Shown here: positions 1-37,960 of the stretch, piece after piece
How positions within the stretch are numbered: the stretch's first letter is position 1
Layout of the letters: the number at the start of each line of letters is the position of its first letter
From: Chiloscyllium plagiosum
Taxonomy: Eukaryota
Direction of reading: 5' to 3'
NCBI RefSeq assembly: GCF_004010195.1
Contig: NC_057718.1
Span: 65,742,919-65,780,942, forward strand
DNA length: 38,024 nucleotides
Notes under the pieces: model-generated
What the model saw: the letters and a program-made list of their open reading frames with translations, nothing else
What the model was told of the DNA's origin: nothing
The model's database searches: none
Translations under genes and position numbers: made by a program

Positions 1-31
1 AATGTAGTAACTCTTTCACAAAGGCAAGATA

Positions 32-145
32 CAGCTGATATTGGAACTCTGAAGTAAAAGTGGAAAATGCTGGAACCTCTCTGGTCTAACAGTGTACATA
101 TAAAGTGAAACAAGTTATTTTAGGCTGATGACCTTTCATTAGAAC
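32..145 (-). mobile_element. Degenerate short Penelope-derived terminal element with decayed HHR core
   Basis: Aligns by eye to 32437-32561 (gatgctggaa..gaaaatgctggaa..tctgg). Minus strand reads ctaatga-a-aggtc-atca-gcct-aaaa, a decayed CUGANGA/stem II/GAAA. Confidence 0.45.
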
Positions 146-5294: not shown

Positions 5295-6440
5295 TTTCCT
5301 AGAATGGTTACAGCAGAGAAGAAGGCTATTTAGCCTGTCTTGTCTGCCCTGGTTCTTTGAATGAGCAATGCACCTGTGCCAATCCCACGCCATCTTTCTG
5401 CAAATTCTTCCGTGTCAAATAATAATCCAATTTCTTACTGAATGCCTTGTATGAACCTGCCTTCAACACATTTTCAGACAAAAGTGAGGACTGCGGATGC
5501 TGGAAATCAGAGTCTAGATTAGAGTGGTGCTGGAAAAGCACAGCCGGTCAGGCAGCATCCGAGGAACAGGAAAATCGACGGTTCAGGCAAAAATCCTTCA
5601 TCAGGAATGAAGAGTTCACCACATTTTCAGACAATGCAGTCCAAATCTTAACTATCATGGATGAAAAAGTTTCACCTCATGTTTCTGCTGCTTTTTTGGC
5701 CACTTACTTTACACTTGTGCCTTGGCATTTTCGAGCCTTATACCAGTGGGGATAGCTTTTCTCCCATCTACAATATGCAAAGCCTTCATGATATTAAATA
5801 TCTCAATCAAATCTCCCCTTGACCTTCTCTTCCCCAAGATGAACAATCCTAATTTCTCTTTGTAGTTGAAATTCCTCATCCTTGGAAACACTCTCTCTCG
5901 TATTTCACATTATTTCTAAAATGCAGAGCCCATAACTGGACATAACATTCTAGTTAAAGCTGAACCAGTGCATTATACAAATTGAATATAATACCTTTTC
6001 CCATGTACACTGTCTCTATTCATAAAACCTTAAACTATATTCTTTATTAACTGCTCTACCAATCTATCTTGGCACTTTCAATTATTTACACACACATGCA
6101 CCCAAGTCCCTCTGCTCCTTCAGCCCCTTTAGAGTTGCATCTTTTATTTTTTTCTCTCCCGACCAAAATGAAGCGTTTCACACTTTTCTGCATTAAATTT
6201 CATCGGCCCATTCCATCAACTTTTTCTTTGCAGCTGTACACCATCCTTCTCTCAGTTCAGAATGCTTTCAACTTTAATGCTATCTGGAAACGTGGAAATT
6301 GTGCCCTGTATGCTAAGGTTTAAGTCATTAATATGTATCAGAAAGAACAAAGACCCCTGGGAAACTCCATTATAAACCTATTTCAGTCTGAAAAACATCC
6401 ATTAATCATTATTATTTCCTGCCACTCAGCCAATTTTACA
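5295..6440 (-). mobile_element. Degenerate CR1 LINE 3' part, interrupted by a PLE-derived insert
   Basis: Minus-strand peptide MFPRMRNFNYKEKLGLFILGKRRSRGDLIEIFNIMK matches the CR1 ORF2 C-terminus. Confidence 0.8.
5482..5614 (-). mobile_element. Short Penelope-derived element (family A, single arm) with degenerate HHR
   Basis: 20-bp TSD ttca(a/c)cacattttcagacaa at 5462-5481 and 5615-5634. Minus strand ctgatga-a-ggattttgcct-gaac-cgtc. Homologous to the arms of the 16.4 and 18.8 kb palindromes. Confidence 0.85.
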
Positions 6441-12805: not shown

Positions 12806-13049
12806 CTATGCAGAGGGCAAGTGTACAGTATGTTGTGCTTCACATTGGCATGTAGTGGGATTCTCCATGTAATACCTTTGCATGCAATGAATGAACATGA
12901 AACTTTTTAGGGCCTGTTTCCACACTGTAAGTAATCTAATCTAATCTATGCAGAGGGCAAGTTTACAGTATGTTGTGCTTCACATTGGCATGTAGTGGGA
13001 TTCTCCATGTAATACCTTTGCATGCAATGAATGAACATGAAACTTTTTA
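12806..13049 (+). repeat. 104-bp direct duplication (12806-12909 / 12946-13049) around a 36-bp insert
   Basis: The two copies differ at one base (gtgtac vs gtttac). Confidence 0.95.
12910..12945 (+). mobile_element. Extremely 5'-truncated HE1/HER1 3' tail
   Basis: gggcctgtttccacactgtaagtaatctaatctaat, the same tail as the reverse complement of 699-737. Confidence 0.85.
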
Positions 13050-14775: not shown

Positions 14776-16419
14776 TCAATAATTAGAGAGAAATAATTAG
14801 CTCAAGAAGGTACAATTAAACTGGGCTGAGTTATTTCCAGTCTGTGAGAAAAGCAATTAAAATTAGACATCACAAAACTGAACTCAAAATGAATCACTGT
14901 GTACAGCTGACAGTTTGCAAGGCTAAACTAGTGCCTTATGCACAGTTAGAATCAGGAAGTGATGATCTGTCTACGATATAAAGAACAAGGACAATTAAGA
15001 AGGTGAGGAGTAGTTGTGGTAGTTCAAGAAGCAGAACAGTCCAGTCAAACTTGTGGAGATTATTAAAAAGAAAAGGCAATTCACGTGATTGAGAATAATA
15101 TTTCAATACATTGACTGTCTGTCAAGTTCCAAGAGGCCAAAGAGTTAACAGCATAAGTTTTATGACAGAGATGTTCATTCTATAGGCAACAAGCTTTGAC
15201 TAAGCCATTTCCTGCCCAAAATTGTTGATGACATCATTATTATGCCATGTGATCAGACTCTTAAAATGACAGTCCACATTACTCACACAAGTACATGTAC
15301 AATATTCCTCCCCTTTACATCAGAGGCTCCTGCAATGAAATCTTTCACAATATTTGCAATCATTTATACAAATCAGTCCACAAGACATTCCAGAGGATGT
15401 CTGTTCCTGTAAGGCTGTCAGCACATCTCAGGCATCTGTTTATTTTTCTTGTTGGCTTTAAACTCTAATGCTTTAGGTATACTCAAGATGTCATCATTCA
15501 GTTTTTTCCTGACAATACTGAATGTTTGGAGATTTGAACAATGTTGTGACATTCTCCACTAAGATACTGTCTCCCTCAGATGTTCTAGATAGTATTCTTC
15601 CTCAGATATATTCTAGTCTTCATTTGGCACAGTTATTTAGTGGATCTTCAATTAATGTTGCTGGCACATTTGATTTGGTTGCCAAGTACATATATTGATC
15701 TTCATGACTTCTTCATATTACTTTGTCTCTCGTCTGCATGATGTAGGAAACCAGGATAGTCTTAGAACATAAAACATAGAAAGTACAGCATAATATAGGT
15801 CTTTCTGCCCACAATGTTGTGCTGATCATTTATCTTAATCTAAGATCAACCTAACCTACACACACCTCAATTTACTGCCATCCATGTGCTTGTTCAGCAG
15901 TCGCTTAAATGTCTCGAATGTCTCTGACTCTAATACCATTCCACGCACCCATCATTCTCTGCATAAAGAACCTACCTCTGAAATCTCCCCTACACCTTCC
16001 TCCAATCACCTTAAAATTATGACTCCTCGTGACAGCCAGAGACTTTTCCCCAGGGCAAAAATGGCTATCTATGCTATTTATGCCTTTCATTACCTTGTAC
16101 ACCTCTATCAAGTCACCTCTCTTTTGTCTTCTCTCCAGTGTGAAAAGCTTGAGCTCACTCAACCTCTCTTCAGAAGACAACCACCCAATCCAGGCAGTAT
16201 CCGGGGAAATCTCCTCTGTGCCCTCTCTAAAGAATCTACATCCTTCCTATAATGAGGCAATCAGAACTGGACACAATATTCCAAATGTGGTCTAACCAGG
16301 GTTTTATAGAGCTGCAGCAAAATGTTGTGGTTGTTAAACTCAATCCCCCCGTTAATGAAAGCCAAAACACCATACATCTTCTTAACAACCCTATCAACTT
16401 GGGTGACAACTTTAAGGGA

Positions 16420-16646
16420 GGAGAAAGTGAGGATTGCAGATGCTGGAGATCAGAGCTGAAAAATGTTTTGCTGGAAAAGCGCAGCAGGTCAGGCAGCATC
16501 CAAGGAGCAGGGGAATCGATGTTTCGGGCATAAGCCCTTCTTCAGGAATTCCTGAAGAAGGGCTTATGCCCGAAACGTCGATTCTCCTGCTCCTTGGATG
16601 CTGCCTGACCTGCTGCGCTTTTCTAGCAACACATTTTTCAGCTCTG
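16420..16646. mobile_element. Palindromic Penelope-derived element (family A): 98-bp arms, no spacer, 31-bp tail on the left arm
   Basis: Arms 16451-16548 and 16549-16646 with about 4 mismatches. 16-bp TSD tg(a/g)caactttaa(g/a)gga at 16404-16419 and 16645-16660. Confidence 0.92.
16552..16579 (+). ncRNA. Minimal hammerhead ribozyme motif (PLE-type)
   Basis: CUGAAGA-A-GGGC(UUAU)GCCC-GAA-ACGU-C: intact core, 4-bp stem II, palindromic ACGU in place of stem III, predicted GUC cleavage. The mirror copy at 16518-16545 (-) has ACAU. Confidence 0.7.
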
Positions 16647-18865
16647 GCAACTTTAAAGGATCCATATATGTGGACCCCAACATGCTGCTGTTCCTCCACA
16701 CTGTCTAGAACCCTGTCTTTAACCCTGTATTCAGCATTCAAATTCAACCTTCCAAAATGAATCACTTCACATTTATCCAGGCTGAACTCCATCTATCACT
16801 TCTCAGCTCAGCTCTGCATCCTGTCAGTGTCTTGTTGTAGCCTGCAACATCCCTCGATACTATTTACAACACCACTGGCCTTTGTGTCATCCAAGTCATT
16901 TATAAAAACTACAAAGGGCAGAGGCCCAAGGACAAATCCCTATGGGGCACCACTGGTCACCAACCTCCAGGTAGAATACTTTCCATCCAGTACCGCTAAC
17001 TGTCTTCTTACAGCCGGCCAATTCTGCATCCAGACAGCCAAATTTCCCTGTATCCCATACATCCTAGTTTTCTGAATGAGCCTACCATGGGGGAACCTTA
17101 TCAAATGCCTTACCAAAATCCAATTACACCACGTGCATTGCTCAACCTTTGTCAACTTGTCTCAACACATCCTCAAAGAACTCAATAAGGCTTGTGAGGC
17201 ATGACCTTCCCCTCACAAAGCCATGCTGACTATCTTTAATCAAACTATGTTTTTCCAAATAATCATAAATTCTATCTCTCAGAGACCTTTCCAGTACTTT
17301 GCTTACCATAGACATAAGACTGAATGGTCTGTAACTCCCAGGGATTTCGCTATTTTTTTTCTTGAACAGAGGAAAAACATTTGCCTCATTCCAATCATCT
17401 GGTAGTACTCCTGTAGAGAGTGAGGATGCAAAAATCATTGCCATAGGTGCAGCAATCTCATTCCTCACTTCCTGTAGTAACCTTGGATATATCTAGTCTG
17501 GCCTTGGGGACTAATCCAACTTGATGCTTCCCAGAATTTCCACCACATCCACTTTCTTAATATCAATCTGTTCAAACCTACTAACTTGGTCCACGGTGTT
17601 CTCACTATCAACAAGGTCCGTCTCTCTGGTGAATACTGAAGAAAAAACTCATTTAGGGCCTCCCCGACATCTTCAGACTCCAGGCACAAGTTCCCTCCAC
17701 TATCCCTGCTCAGTCTTACCCTCTCTATGATCATTCCTTTATTCCTCACATAAGTGTAGAACACCTTTGAGTTTTCTCCAATCCTTCCCGCCAAGGCTTT
17801 TTCATGCCCCCCTCCTAACTCTCTTCAGTCCATTTTTGAGTTCTTTCCTAGCTACCCTGTAATCTTCTAAAGCTGTGCCAGATCCTTGCTTCCGCAACTT
17901 TAAGCAAACTTCTTTCTTCCTCTGGACGAGAAGCTCCTCTTCTCTTGTCACCCAAGGCTCCTTCACCTTACCATTTCTTACCTATTTCAGTGGGATAAAC
18001 TTATCCAACACTCGCTCCTTAAACAGCCTCCACATTTCTGTTGCTCATTTCCCATAGAACAATTGTTCCCAATTTATACTCCACAACTCCTGTCTAATAG
18101 CAGTATAATTTCCCCTGCCCCAATTAAATACCTTCCCATATTGTCTGTTTCTATCTCTATCCATGGCTCTGGTAAAGGTGAGGCCAATGTGGTCACTGTC
18201 ACCAAAATGCTCTCCCATCGAGAGATCTGACACCTGGCTTGGCTCGTTGCCTAGCACCAAATCCAATATGGCCTCCCCCCTAGTTGGTCTAACTTCATAT
18301 TGAGCCAGGAATCCTTCCGGGACACACTTGACAAAATGGACTCCATCTAGACCATCTGCACTAAGGAGGTTCCAATCAATATTGGGGAAGTTGAAATCAC
18401 CCATAACAACAACTCTGCTACATCTGCACCTTTCCAAGATCTGCTGTCTAATCTGTTCTTCCATCTCTCTGCTGCTATTGGGGGGTCCATGGGAAATACC
18501 CAGTACAGTGACTGCTCCTTTTCTGTTACTGACGTCCACCCATACTGACTCAGTAGACAAACCCTCCTCAACAACCTCCTTTTCTGCAGTTGTGATGACT
18601 CTCTAATTAACAATGCTACTCCCCCTCCTCTTTTACCGTGACGAAGAGTACCCGATGAAGTTAACTGACGAAGGAGCAGTGGTCCGAAACGTAGTGCTTC
18701 CAAATAAACCTGTTTGTCTATAACCTGGTGTTGTGTGATTTTTAACTTTGTCCACCCCAGTCCAATAGGAGAAAGTGAGGACTGCAGATGCTGGAGATCA
18801 GAGCTGAAAAATGTGTTGCTGGAAAAACGCAGCAGGTCAGGCAGCATCCAAGGAGCAGGAGAATC

Positions 18866-18893
18866 GACGTTTCGGGCATGAGCCCTTCTTCAG
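18866..18893 (-). ncRNA. Minimal hammerhead ribozyme motif (mirror copy)
   Basis: The reverse complement is identical to 18899-18926. Confidence 0.7.
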
Positions 18894-18898
18894 GATTC

Positions 18899-18926
18899 CT
18901 GAAGAAGGGCTCATGCCCGAAACGTC
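18899..18926 (+). ncRNA. Minimal hammerhead ribozyme motif
   Basis: CUGAAGA-A-GGGC(UCAU)GCCC-GAAACGUC. Confidence 0.7.
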
Positions 18927-20934
18927 GATTCTCCTGCTCCTTGGACGCTGCCTGACCTGCTGCGCTTTTCCAGCAACACATTTTCAGCTTCCACCCCAGT
19001 CCAACACTGCCACCTCCACATCACTTTACCACGAGAAATGCCAGAGAACTTTCAGTCGTTGAGTGGATTGTATTCTGGGACGCTAACAAGCATTGGCTCA
19101 ATCTTTGAATTAGTGATCCTTGTTCTTGAGTTACACTTAAGAAATGTTTCATTGTCTGAACAAATCTTTTAACAAACATTTGTGCTGATTGATAGGGAGC
19201 TGATTGGATATATTGAATTCTGTTTTGCTTTAGATAGTCAGTAAATTTGTGTGATAATAATTATGGATCTTTATCATGATCAGGTTGTTCTGGATAACCA
19301 AACCTCATAATCTCAATCTTTTAATTGTTTTCTCTGAAGATGTTGTCTTCATAATGGCAACTTTAGGTCATTTAGCATACATGTAAACCACAATGGAAAA
19401 CATTTCCTCTTCAAAATATCTGGCCTAGTCAATGTGGATTCTTTGCCATGGTCTTTCTGACCATTCCTATGGGTGCACTGGTGTTAATGGAGGTAGGTTG
19501 GGAACTGTTGTGCAAGCTGCACATATTCCCATTTTCTTAATTTCAGAGTCAAGCCCAGGCCACCAAATATAGCTTCTGGCTTCATTCTGACAATGCCATG
19601 GTGTCCTTCATGTAATTGATTAAACTCTGGTTTCCCTACCTTTGCTGGAATGATGACCCTCATTCCAGGAGACTTCCTGCTTGTACGGATAGTTCTGGCT
19701 TCTTTGTGGTGTACATTTTCAATTTTGGAATTGTTCTGTGATCTTTCCATGAAGTACCATGTCCACCACTTTTGATAGTGGATATTTCCAGTGTACTTCT
19801 TAACTTGACATGCCATTACCAAGTGTTCTCTACTTGTTTGAAGTAGAAAATGTCTACATGAGGATATTTATAGTTGACTCCTTTGCAAACGTAATTTGTC
19901 AAGCTCACAGCATTCCCATATAAGTCAGAATGCCTATACTCAATTGTGTAAGTATGAGCTGATAGAACAACATGAATCCCTGCATATGGCTTGCAGCTAG
20001 AGAAGGTATCCCTGGATGAGGCCCAAATATTGTGGTCAATAGCCTGTGGTCTGTTGGTAGGGTAAACTCCCAGCCCTACAGGTATTGGTAGAATTATCGA
20101 ATGCCAAACATGATTCCGAGATCTTCTTTCTCTATCTGTGAACAGTTCGTTGTTGTTTTGTTTAACAATCTTATTGCAACAGCTTCTCTTCATTGGAAAT
20201 ATGTGAGAAATTACTGCCTCTTGCAATGGTAACCTTGAGTGAAATGGTATCAGGACTTCTGACTTTAATAAAGATTCTTTGGCTTATGTAAAAGTTCTTT
20301 TACATTGATCTTCCCATTTCCGATTTTGTTTTGGCATAATAAATTGTGAACCAGCTTGAGAATGGTTGCAGGATTTGGAACAAATCTACCATAGTAATTT
20401 AGCAAGCCCAAAATTGATCGTAGTTGGTTTACATTTTTTATGCTAATTATGGCTTTTATTTTTCAAGTGACTTGCCTCATCTCTTAACATCAATGACATG
20501 GCCTAGATATTCAGTGAAAGATTTAAAAAGCAAGCAAGTTGTTCTTTCCTCACCCTTCGGCCATAATTTTCAAGTGTCTGCAGAGTGGTGTCTAAATTTT
20601 GGAGATGCTCTTTTTCATTTGTCATCATGATTAAAATTCTGTGTAGGCATCCACTAAAATCCATTTAAAATCTGATCCATGGCATATTGGAATACTACAG
20701 GTACAGGTGTGATTCCAAATGAAAGTCTCTTGTATTTCAATTCTCCTTTATGTGTTATAATCAACAAGTATTTCTGTGACTCAGGATCTACATATATTTG
20801 GAGATAGTCTTAACTTAGGTCAATTTTATTGAAACGTTGACTTCCAGCTAGTCCAACAAATATGTAATCGATTAAAGGCAAATAATACTGCTCAGCATTG
20901 TATCAGATTAAATGTGACCTTAAAATCACTGCAG

Positions 20935-28273: not shown

Positions 28274-29204
28274 CTGACCTGTGATGTCATTTTGTTTATA
28301 CTGGTAAAACCTTATCTCAGATTAGTGACTTGCAAGAAATTTTGGGACTTACATGTTAACCAATCGAAAACTGCATCTCCATTCTAACAGATTAAATATT
28401 TAACAGCCATCTTAGGTCAATTCGTTTGCGTCAGTTGTACGAATCGTTGAGCTTTTACTTATAAATTCTGAGTCTAAGGTCTCCCTCTTTCATTAGCACG
28501 TGAAGAAGGAGCAAGGCTCTGAAAGCTTGTGATTTCAAATAAACCTGTTAGACTATAACCTGGTGTGATTTTTGACATGGCCCAACCCAGTCCAAGATTG
28601 GCACCTCCACATCTTGATTGTCTTTCATACCATTTCCTAACTTTTTCATATCACTTTTTGTTATGTTTTACTTGTTGTCTACACACTTAGTCTATGTCAT
28701 TTTTAATTGCAATTTTATTCTTAATTCATCCATGGTGTGTCTTGTTGGCTAGACTTTTAGTGGGATATATTTCTCTTGGCCTGTCTTGATCAGCATTTTA
28801 TAATTTCTAATATTCTCATATTTTCTACCTCTAAGTTAGTTCTTAAATCTTGTCACATTTAGTGACTAAATTTTTTTAGCTTATGTACCTTGTTGATGCT
28901 TAACTTAAATCTTACTTGTTGTGATCAGTGCTGCCTAAATATTTCCTGTGTTTACTAATTTTGTTTGTTCTTGTTCCTTTCCCTCTGGGAAATGTATACC
29001 TAGAAACACTCCTCTTCACAGCTATACATAATAAGTAAGAAGTGTGTCTTGCACTCATCATGTAAGAACTCCTGTACCCTTTAGGTCACTTATTGGCAAT
29101 TGTTATTGGGTCAGTTAACCATCTCAACAGGCAAAAGGGTCTGTAGACAATGCCAAAGGCTGAAGCTTCTCCACCACAATGTCAGCACTCCTCTTCCTTG
29201 ATTA

Positions 29205-32739: not shown

Positions 32740-33900
32740 AACTTCGTAAGAACGGGATATGATGCTCAACTCATTGAACACCAGTTCCAATGTAACCCAG
32801 TGAAAAACTGCAACTACCTCCTCAGAAGACAGATAGGGGACACAACCAAGAGAGTACTCTTGTCACCCAGTACTTCCCTGGAGCAGCCTTCAATATGTCA
32901 TCGATGATGACAAACATCTCCCCAAGGTCATCTCTACACCTCCACTTCTCTTCTTAAAATAACCGCCAAACCTTAAACAGACCATCATTCGCAGCAAACT
33001 GCCCAGCCTTCAGGAGAACAGTGACCACAACACTACACAACCCTGCCAGAGCAACCTCTGCAAGACATGACAGATCTTTCACATGGATACTACCATCACA
33101 CATGGGAATGCCACCCAACATGCATGTGGCAAGTACTCATGCAACTCGGCCAGTGTTGTCTACCTCATATGCTGCAGGAAAGGATACCCTGAGACACCAC
33201 ACAATAATCACCAGACAGTTCCCCTTCCAGTGGGGAACACTTCACTAGTCAAGGACATTCAGCCTCTGATCTTCAGTTAAGCATCCTCCAAGGCAGCCTT
33301 TGAGATACACAACAATGCAGAATCACTGAGCAGAAACTGATAACCAAGTTCTGTACCCATGAAGATGGCATCAATTATGAACTTGGGTTTATGTCACATT
33401 ACATGTAACCCTACCATACTGTTCTATATAAAATTTTCCTTGCTGTTCTGTTTGACAACATCACCTTGATAACTTGTTATTATCTCTCTACCTTAATTAG
33501 TTTTGGATTACATGTTACTTTGGTTAGACCCTCGTTGTACAACTCTGATACCTATCAGGCAATTCCAGCCATTTGGTTGTCTCGAGCACCAACTTATTTA
33601 TAATCTTTTGTAATTATCTCTCTGCCTCAATTAATCGGATCATAGGTCATCCCTTCACTTGCTATTCAAGTGTTAACACTTTACTCACACATTCTGACAC
33701 TTTTGATCACCTGCAAAGACTTGTTATTAAGCCTGTCGGCTCTGTACTCACACATTTGTACTATCTTTTGATCTCCCCGCCTAAAAATTCTTCGTCCATG
33801 CTTCCCTCCATGTCACCTGACAATGGAGCGGTGTTCCAAAACCTTGTGGTCTCAAACAAATCAGTTGGACTATAACCTGCGTCATGTGGCTTTTAACCTT
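32740..33900 (+). mobile_element. 5'-truncated Penelope-like element (family B): GIY-YIG remnant, 3' UTR, decayed HHR
   Basis: PPNLKQTIIRSKL, CQSNLCKT, YSCNSASVVYLICCRKG, VGEHF, EQKLITKFCTHEDGINYELGFMSHYM*. HHR-like motif at 33814-33847. Confidence 0.85.
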
Positions 33901-35990: not shown

Positions 35991-36605
35991 CTTTGAAGGA
36001 AATGAGTAGAAAACAGTGTTCAACATAGTTGAATTAACAAACAAATATAATTTGACAGGCAGATATAGATGACTTTCAACTTGTAAAGGAAATGAGAAGA
36101 AGTGGAGTGGTGAATATCAAAGTTTAACGAGGAAGAGGTTAGAAGTTAGTTTCACAACCCTTTATTGTGTTCCCATCGAGGGCAGAGATGACTGTGCATG
36201 GGTTACAGATTCACTTATTGTTTCTTTAATAGTTTAAAATGTTGATGTGGTAGCTTCCACTAACTATTCCATTAGCTTGAAAATAATGTATTCTGACTTT
36301 ACCATTCATAAATGAGTTACCGAAGATTGAGCTAATTAAGAAGACAGGTCAAACAAGATACACAAAATCCTAGGGAGTGGGACTCACTGAGAAGGGTATT
36401 CAAATTATGGTAAGTAGCAAAGGAGGGGAGAAATGATACCAAAAGTTAATCGAAGCACAGGATGTTTAGATAAGGCCAGCTGATGAGCACTATGTGGTAA
36501 TTGGTTTGTATAATAACTGCCTTATGTATGAATGTTGGAGACAATAGAAAGAATTCACTGTATCATCAGAAGCATCTAAATTAATGTGGCCTCAAATTTT
36601 ACAGG

Positions 36606-37075
36606 GTTAAAAATCACACAACACCAGGTTATAGTGCAACAGGTTTATTTGGAAGCACTAGCTTTCAGACTGCTGCTCCTTCATCACGTAGCTGTGGAGC
36701 AGGACTAAAAGACACAGAATTTATAGCAAAAGAGGTCATGCAACTGAAATGATAAATTGAACAAACCTAGAATGTTGTTAAGTCTTTCATCTTTTAGAAT
36801 GAGTTGCAGATTTTAGTTCATTAGTATGTAAATCCTAGTCACATTCTTGAGGTTTTATTAAAAAAAAGTTGACATCTCAGCTCAGAAATGCACTAAAGGT
36901 GTGAGGTTAGAGTCTGTCTGTATCTCAACCTTGAGTCAGACTGGTTCTATTTCCAAAGTGGAATTTACAAAATATCACATGGATTGAGTGCCTGCATTGA
37001 CTGCATTGAACAAAATAGTTTGTATCTGCAAATACAATTCTGCAAATACAAATTCACCCCATAGGCTTATATGTG
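36606..37075 (-). mobile_element. Penelope 3' region (family B) with decayed HHR
   Basis: gttaaaaatcacacaacaccaggttatag..; the minus strand of 36655-36691 reads gtgatga-a-ggagc-agc-agtct-gaaagcta-gtg. Confidence 0.8.
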
Positions 37076-37231
37076 TGCACACATGCATTAGAGAGAGAGT
37101 GTGTGTGTATGTGATGTGTGCATGTGACTGTGAGTGCACGCGAGAAAGTGTGTGTTTGCATGTGTGCAAGCTTGGTAAAGTGTTGATTGAGTGTGATGGG
37201 ATATAAGAGAATGTATGCATGGGTGTAAGAG

Positions 37232-37265
<34 letters not shown>

Positions 37266-37878
37266 GTGTGTTTGTGTATGTGTGTCTGTGTCTGTGTGAA
37301 GTAGTGTATCCATATCTGTGTGTATGTGTGTCTGTGTGTACCTGTGTCTCTCTGTGTGTCTGTGTTTGTGTGTAAGAGAGTGTGCATCCGTATCTGTGTG
37401 TATGTGTGTGTCTGTGTGTCTATGTCTGTAGCTGTGTGTGACCGTGTGTGACTCTGTGATTGACTGTGTCTGCGTGTAAGCGCGAGTGTGTGTGTGTGAG
37501 AGAGAGTGTGTTTGCGTGTGTGTCTGTATCCCTTTCTCTCTGTGTTTGTCTGTGTTGGTCTCTCTCTATCTGTGACTCTGTGTGCCTTTTCTCTGCCTGT
37601 TTGTGTGTCTCTTTCTGTCTATTCCACTCTGTATGTCTGTCTCTGCATCTCTCTCTTATCTTTCTGTGTGTGTGGCTCTCTCTCTCTGTGTCTGTGTGTC
37701 CCTATGTGTGTGTGTCTCTTTCTGTATCTCTCTTTCTGTGCGTGTCTCTCTCTGTGTCTATCTGTGTGTCCCTATGTGTGCATGTCTCTGTCTGTATCTC
37801 TCTTTCTGTGTGTGTGTGTCTCTCTCTCTGTCTGTGTGTGTGTCTCTGTCTGTATCTGTGTGTGTGTGTGTGTGTGTC
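37070..37878. repeat. Compound (TG)n/(TC)n microsatellite, about 800 bp
   Basis: Directly visible; it explains the low-complexity ORFs here. Confidence 0.95.
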
Positions 37879-37960
37879 GGTTTTCCGCGGTCAGGACTAA
37901 TGAAGGGGGAAATCACAGATGCAGAATGGAGAGAGAGAAAGAGAGACCCAGCGTTGTTAC

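Follow-up and report, generated by a model that had tools for sequence, protein, structure and literature searches.

A head-to-head pair of Penelope-like terminal modules with hammerhead motifs in the genome of Chiloscyllium plagiosum, probably assembled at insertion

In the genome of the shark Chiloscyllium plagiosum, a 38,024-nt stretch of contig NC_057718.1 (positions 65,742,919 to 65,780,942), designated here as the window, contains at 16404..16660 a short palindromic insertion that carries hammerhead ribozyme (HHR) motifs and is flanked by a target-site duplication (TSD). We characterized this insertion together with its relatives elsewhere in the genome. It is probably a stub without an open reading frame (ORF), which consists of two head-to-head terminal modules of a Neptune-type Penelope-like element (PLE) and was likely assembled at insertion by the element's own reverse transcriptase (RT) and endonuclease (EN). 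Coordinates are those of the window, and small signed numbers are positions in the module. The features are as follows.

16404..16419 (+): left TSD, 16 nt, of which 14 are identical to the right copy (direct repeat; empty-site overlap in two of four other CR1 copies).
16420..16450 (−): 31-nt tail of the PLE, bounded on the outside by the fixed distal 3′ end (module position +128/129), which is likely the distal RT start site (end positions; PMC11167929).
16451..16548 (−): long (tailed) arm, the PLE terminal module, sense on the minus strand (sequence near-identical to that of the 5′ leader in L212, a copy with an ORF).
16518..16545 (−): minimal hammerhead motif of the left arm; its palindromic helix III is disrupted by G to A at 16520 (motif search).
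16548..16549 (no strand): palindrome centre with a 2-nt AT overlap; each arm begins at module position 0 (the identical junction was counted in 3 of the 66 young palindromes).
16549..16646 (+): short arm, which lacks the tail and ends at module position ~97–98, sharing 2 nt of microhomology with the TSD; RT likely started here, at the proximal site (inverted-repeat and end analysis).
16552..16579 (+): minimal hammerhead motif of the right arm, core intact; predicted cut after 16579 (motif search).
16645..16660 (+): right TSD (direct repeat; empty sites).
15905..18602 (−): host, a decayed long interspersed nuclear element (LINE) with apurinic/apyrimidinic-type endonuclease (APE) and RT, CR1-type, split by the insertion; its approximate extent was estimated from fragments of the ORF.
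18768..18989 (no strand): second palindromic copy of the same family, with a 15-nt TSD and a centre one base shorter.
5477..5608 (−): older-subfamily copy (81% identity) with a single arm, likewise starting at module position 0.

The inverted repeat 16451–16548/16549–16646 has 98-nt arms that are 96% complementary, with a 0-nt spacer, and its predicted fold reaches −182.9 kcal/mol (z −23 against 200 shuffles). An extension of 31 nt at 16420–16450 belongs to one arm only, and a direct repeat (16404–16419/16645–16660, 14/16 identical) encloses the whole. Among four other CR1 copies that match both flanks, two join them with an overlap of exactly 16 nt and two with offsets of −28 and −34. Because the 16-nt overlap joins the flanks in two of the four, the TSD is real, and the palindrome and tail were inserted as a single unit. 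On its minus strand, the host LINE contains RVT_1 (E 1e-7) and Exo_endo_phos_2 (E 4e-9); we take it to be CR1 from its ORF2 motifs. An earlier note, made from the sequence alone, had described a palindrome without spacer, a one-sided 31-nt extension, a 16-bp TSD in a CR1 that implied insertion as one unit, and an inverted end plus tail of PLE type, all of which held.

Zero-spacer palindromes are a known type of artefact, arising in assembly or library construction from chimeric fold-back reads. The arms differ at four of 98 sites (16520/16577, 16512/16585, 16473/16624 and 16467/16630), and this divergence shows that the structure has had time to drift and did not arise as an artefact of a read. 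Given also the TSD, the empty CR1 sites and 46 similar structures in a 964-kb sample, an artefact is hardly conceivable.

The parent element was reached by walking upstream from the arm. Among the 30 best single-arm matches, 16 run upstream into shared C-rich PLE sequence, 10 are palindromes and 4 are bare single arms; the sequence upstream of the arm is the end of a GIY-YIG domain. Locus L208 has a frame of 684 aa that matches RVT_1 (E 2.7e-6) and GIY-YIG (E 3.3e-4), each narrowly missing the Pfam cut-off, and the arm and tail come after it. The same order of ORF and then module was found at L202, L203 and L196, the copy in the window having no ORF; this contiguity confirmed the PLE origin that the earlier note had proposed. 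Database relatives of the ORF contain RVT_1, PF26215 and GIY-YIG, the best named ones being from Chiloscyllium and Stegostoma. At L210, L212 and L199 the order is module, tail, 37 nt, ATG and ORF, and the product after the ATG in L210 and L199 begins as in full-length relatives. Because the module adjoins the RT–GIY-YIG ORF downstream and, in tandems, precedes the ATG by 37 nt, the arm and tail are the 3′ end of the pseudo-long terminal repeat (pLTR) and, in tandems, also the 5′ leader of the ORF. Two hallmarks of endonuclease-bearing (EN+) PLEs are thus present, namely a single ORF with RT and C-terminal GIY-YIG next to the module, and the same module before and after the ORF (pLTR or partial tandem). 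A CxxxxCxxC linker, present in the L208 frame, lies ahead of the GIY-CxxC-YIG region in P0002 and P0038 and, judged by protein sequence, would mark the parent as Neptune type, for which the linker definition is given in PMC8557442. A GIY-YIG family search of the genome returned a single weak locus only, and a Pfam scan of P0002 returned no match. A miniature inverted-repeat transposable element or fold-back DNA transposon was ruled out, as the 31-nt tail lies at one end, the other end varies at ~70–102 and the parent is an RT element.

Candidates for the element in the 3.56-Gb genome number at least 1239. A sample independent of similarity was drawn as five 200-kb blocks chosen by coordinate alone (964 kb without N), in which counts include all subfamilies to ~78% identity, 20 palindromes being of the young type. 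It contained 225 arms in 179 insertions, 46 of which were head-to-head, with 6–13 palindromes per block; extrapolation from these five blocks only gives ~660,000 insertions and ~170,000 palindromes in the genome. A tailed arm is paired with a tail-less arm in 36 of the 46 pairs, and a further hallmark of EN+ PLEs, an optional 30–40-bp tail with an adjacent inverted copy, was thus found.

The 3′ ends of the 225 arms are bimodal, lying at about +80–98 and about +123–129. At 30 EN-bearing loci, 12 of the 3′ ends are at +122–129, 13 at +90–99 and 5 elsewhere, regardless of palindromes. Among the long arms of young palindromes, 58 of 62 end at reference position 127–128 or beyond, and 77 of 133 single insertions have the tail-less 3′ end. 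This bimodality matches the two internal RT starts of an anole PLE (PMC11167929). The 5′ ends concentrate at −5..+9 (91/225 arms, 5.8% stop per nt), against background rates per nt of 0.6% at −50..−6, 0.4% at −150..−51 and 0.4% at +25..+60; independently of the assembly, the depth of reads and contigs drops 5- to 7-fold at position ~0 in sequencing runs X19 and X15. Of 23 ORF-bearing gap-free copies, 10 start at −5..+6, 7 extend upstream and 6 start further in. Position 0 coincides with the A in TCATTCC or TTATTCC for the majority of 27 long copies, and this sequence fits the initiator (Inr) consensus YYANWYY. Transcription likely starts at position ~0 of the module, just before the hammerhead; an internal TATA-less promoter has been described for Penelope of D. 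virilis (PMC2377424). At 12 of 30 ORF-bearing loci, an ORF fragment breaks off at no fixed internal position and is joined directly to an arm that begins at ~0, and three more have linkers of 11–17 nt; these junctions fit template jumps from the run-off end. Internally deleted elements (L214, L215, L222, L224, L227–L230, L233 and L239) consist of a module, the first 260–515 nt after the tail and a second module from ~0, with a break point that differs in each, and are candidate template-jump products or non-autonomous minis.

The hammerhead motif occurs at +16552–16579 and −16518–16545, and the window has four matches versus 0.00 expected. In the right arm it is intact (CUGAAGA-A-GGGC/GCCC-GAAAC-GUC), with the catalytic core, bulged nucleotide, stem II and self-complementary 15.2–16.2 of PLE minimal type I hammerheads, the class to which it had previously been assigned. 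The left-arm motif reads GAAACAUC and, mutated at 16.2, has lost the self-complementary ACGU needed for helix III of a dimer. The claim that both arms begin with the motif therefore stands as to its presence in each arm and fails in detail, since each motif begins 4 nt from the palindrome centre and the left-arm ACGU is destroyed. Stem I is weak, as the earlier note had also judged: rather than the 4–5 bp of PLE minimal type I hammerheads, the focal copy has 2 bp plus U.U and A-U, with a pairing probability of ~0.001 in a single arm. The predicted pairing probability of stem II is 0.0 in the whole palindrome versus 0.97–1.0 in one arm, so that sequestration of the motif in the full hairpin, also suggested before, is borne out at the level of folding models.

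At the family level, the hammerhead motif is real: it matches 89 times in the 964 kb versus 0–3 times in five simulated sets, and variation among subfamilies of the focal family is limited to N7 and loop II, with a constant core and a constant stem II. Other hammerhead families have different stems II and exchange ACGU for AGCU. An Rfam scan returned no hammerhead family even at E 10; its best matches, microRNA hairpin models below their gathering scores, reflect any long hairpin. Single arms folded no better than shuffles (z 0.1–0.2), and a two-copy cofold did not yield the dimeric hammerhead. Activity of the ribozyme in the focal copy is unlikely, and it is predicted to be silent in the hairpin. 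Published minimal HHRs (min-HHRs) cleave poorly, as dimers or with the help of protein (PMC4209133, PMC11167929), dimer cleavage being described in PMC6765202 and PMC4209133. A sister subfamily (copies 70400 and 71112 in block B25 and 164785 in block B9, within L171–L190 and L091–L110) has loop CTGT, GAAT after the cut site and a perfect 4-bp stem I, and is the best candidate for a cleavage test. Blocks L091–L190 contain at least four hammerhead families by stem II type (GGGC, GGAGC, GGGTC and GTTACC), the last three of which have better stems I than the focal family.

The earlier note had inferred that the insertion is a self-propagating, retrozyme-like non-coding parasite. In such a scheme, a non-autonomous ~230-nt palindromic RNA would itself be retrotransposed by the PLE machinery, and this would accommodate the very many near-full palindromes (all 40 scored places have a forward and an inverted match, though the query is itself selective for palindromes), the short-arm end, whose variability and microhomology resemble those of a LINE 5′ junction, and one junction type seen three times on one marker background. 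This reading was not supported: many copies of the module run directly into PLE coding sequence, junctions are variable, with a given junction found on 3–4 marker backgrounds, and the palindromes grade into kilobase inverted ORF-containing insertions with the same tail/no-tail design (L036, L060 and L202). The copies also ignore the cleavage site, only 2 of 225 arms having 5′ ends there (+30..34), and RT would need to traverse a hairpin of −183 kcal/mol. Like non-LTR retrozymes (Cervera and de la Pena 2020, PMC7229834; Li et al. 2026, 10.64898/2026.07.22.740005), the insertion is short and non-coding, with a type I HHR and a relationship to PLE pLTRs. Those elements, however, are head-to-tail tandems with an HHR per unit and a circular RNA, whereas the shark element is a head-to-head pair with a TSD; no HHR-delimited tandem units were found among the 159 clusters listed in the 964 kb, and 5′ ends pile up at −5..+9 rather than at +32, where cleavage would set them. 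We therefore regard a retrozyme-like origin as quite improbable.

TSDs and junctions bear on how the palindromes formed. Of the 46 palindromes, 35 have a TSD, compared with 9 of 43 tailed and 6 of 58 short singles; among controls the figure is 2 of 179. The mode of TSD length is 14 nt (21 of 51 found), the TSDs of palindromes being ~14–16 nt. Tailed and tail-less arms are paired in 62 of 66 young palindromes. In these 62 pairs, the short arm reaches further 5′ by >2 nt in 19, the long arm in 18, and 25 are ties; where the difference is ≥10 nt, the short arm reaches further in 15 and the long arm in 5. Upstream parent sequence missing from the tailed arm extends over as much as 32 nt in the tail-less arm, and parent sequence from upstream of position 0 lies in 11 of the 62 centres, where a fixed palindromic master would have none. 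Perfect centres like that at 16548..16549 are limited to 3 of 66, and the same centre junction recurs on 3–4 marker backgrounds. Because neither arm contains the other, centres vary and junctions recur across marker backgrounds, the data favour the end-to-end joining of two primed cDNAs rather than fold-back or the copying of a palindromic master.

Fold-back would derive the inverted arm of the same PLE stub from self-priming on the cDNA or on an antisense template, with centres reshaped by later deletions. Self-priming was proposed for such palindromic junctions by Arkhipova et al. 2013 (PMC3846280). It fits the centre of L029, the recurring "1,6" junction, the concordant arm markers and an inverted repeat, weak and imperfect, that most of the 27 long copies have around position 0 (−2 to −13 kcal/mol). 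Against it, a zero-spacer centre would need a loop of at least 3 nt, the tail-less arm is the one that reaches further 5′ in 19 of 62 pairs, with its upstream parent sequence, and tail-less 3′ ends also occur solo in sense orientation (13/30 EN-bearing loci; 77/133 singles). On this balance, we consider fold-back unlikely.

The joining of two cDNAs may proceed as follows. The PLE protein would nick both target strands ~14 nt apart, and each target 3′ end would prime RT at either of two sites within the leader of the mRNA, ~30–35 nt apart, a spacing measured in vitro for the anole PLE. Both cDNAs would run off the template 5′ end, likely the Inr-like transcription start, after ~130 and ~95 nt; their 3′ ends would anneal by 1–4 nt of microhomology and repair would fill in, giving tail-arm/arm with a TSD. 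Longer copies could arise when a cDNA jumps from the template 5′ end to another template position, and the hammerhead would be a passenger that is copied uncut.

Several points weigh against this joining model. Of the 66 young palindromes, 46 came from loci picked by similarity and 20 from the coordinate blocks, and end positions are BLAST end points with an error of a few nt. The arms are concordant in subfamily markers (48/52, 49/57 and 56/58, versus 0.51, 0.48 and 0.62 expected), which fits one template or one source locus and is no proof of two RNAs; arm-marker discordance as proof of two RNA templates was sought and not found. Later central deletions could produce some asymmetric junctions, the two commonest of which are one base shorter than perfect. 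The start sites are drawn by analogy with the in vitro anole PLE, which is Poseidon and not Neptune. No molecule-end pile-up at position 0 was seen in RNA run X19, a single-cell polyA library and unsuited to this, and a cap-type G at −1 is not in excess outside palindromes (4/42); inside palindromes it occurs in 18/37, where the partner arm can supply it.

In L1 twin priming, the second target strand primes a second cDNA and the inversion is joined by microhomology; the second primer anneals further upstream on the RNA, and the inverted part is not a duplicate. The route proposed for the shark PLE differs in that its two starts are fixed and a single segment is copied two times. LTR strong-stop cDNA is likewise a short run-off cDNA, which is followed by a template jump.

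The insertion architecture itself is already published (Arkhipova 2013, PMC3846280; Frangieh 2024, PMC11167929), and the present family is a very abundant new member. EN+ PLE insertions comprise a direct pLTR, a 30–40-bp tail, an adjacent inverted 5′-truncated pLTR and a TSD (PMC3846280; Craig et al. 2021, PMC8557442). The shark insertions share the head-to-head inverted copy, the one-sided 31-bp tail, the TSD, a pLTR 5′ end with an Inr-like motif and a short palindrome, and a pLTR and tail that lead into the ORF start. They differ in lacking the ORF, with both arms cut back to the same ~130/95-nt module, in a TSD mode of 14 nt rather than the 8–10 nt of rotifer PLEs, and, relative to the EN+ PLEs described in these sources, in a copy number of the order of 10^5 and a module wholly upstream of the ATG. 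In vitro work on Poseidon_Ac of the green anole (Frangieh et al. 2024, PMC11167929) placed one internal RT start on either side of the tail and showed cutting and extension of both target strands; it predicts a dimer and finds HHR cleavage dispensable. The shark element resembles it in the HHR ~110–130 nt upstream of the RT start region and, under the proposed model, in the two tail-bracketing RT starts, the cutting and extension of both strands of the target and the uncut RNA template; unlike it, Poseidon_Ac belongs to the Poseidon clade and its ORF starts inside the HHR. The main text of that paper, as far as available, gives no account of inverted copies, a 5′ run-off point or template jumps; a similar 5′ pile-up may be in its supplement (Fig. 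S2). As in the metazoan PLE min-HHRs (Cervera and de la Pena 2014, PMC4209133), the shark motif has the core CUGANGA/GAAA, an extra nucleotide after A9, G10.1–C11.1 and self-complementary 15.2–16.2, whereas its stem II has 4 bp versus 7–8 in Schistosoma and its stem I 2 bp plus a mismatch versus 4–5. Those min-HHRs are mostly solo copies from truncated PLEs, with opposite-strand pairs 100–700 bp apart in Schistosoma, and sharks are not among the genomes named in the consulted parts of that paper. Our literature search found neither the shark family nor a PLE twin-priming or run-off model; subscription papers, Repbase and Dfam were outside it and may hold the family.

The origin of PLE tandem and inverted structures is stated as open in PMC8557442 and PMC11167929. 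We tentatively propose, at somewhat less than even confidence, that RT starts from two leader sites on both strands, that a strong-stop-like run-off occurs at the front edge of the hammerhead and that twin joining or a template jump follows. If so, a single rule would account for pLTRs and tails, for inversions and for how abundant solo hammerheads are among metazoan genomes, and shark genomes would hold hundreds of thousands of frozen intermediates of the PLE cycle. The single locus is ordinary; the population is useful, as its start sites, 14-nt stagger, run-off point and jump junctions are testable numbers. In such genomes, a hammerhead motif, solo or paired, is no sure sign of a retrozyme or an active ribozyme, and the extrapolated ~170,000 near-perfect ~100-bp hairpins are a large potential source of intronic double-stranded RNA and of palindrome instability.

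RNA run X19 contained 3711 family reads on both strands and X20 none, with no places where molecules begin or end; the mapped reads stem from the whole family and not from the focal locus. The earlier note had suggested that the hairpin could be a substrate of Dicer or ADAR. Places with A>G plus T>C, the pattern that A-to-I editing would leave, numbered 62/195 in X19, 33/127 in X15 and 37/132 in X1, and G>A was also raised in X19, so that the counts speak neither for nor against editing. A search of sequencing runs with the ORF part of L212 as query, not the module, gave no RNA run among those listed.

Other repeats were noted. The end of a second PLE family with a hammerhead lies at 18659–19022 (motif +18665–18693, stem II of the GGAGC type), and the palindromic copy 18768–18989, with its TSD, sits inside it; related pieces occur at 28498–28613, 33818–33883 and 36601–36693. 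At L199, an older-subfamily copy, an inverted-repeat insertion of this second family lies just inside the ORF start (400–695 in element orientation). Elsewhere in the window, 19484–19867 (−) is a 127-aa open stretch with an HxxHxG motif that recalls the integrase zinc-binding region of LTR retrotransposons and has no Pfam match, and 37227–37900 is a long degenerate TG/TC-rich simple-repeat tract. At 12806–13049, two 104-nt copies, 99% identical and 140 nt apart, represent a recent tandem or assembly duplication.

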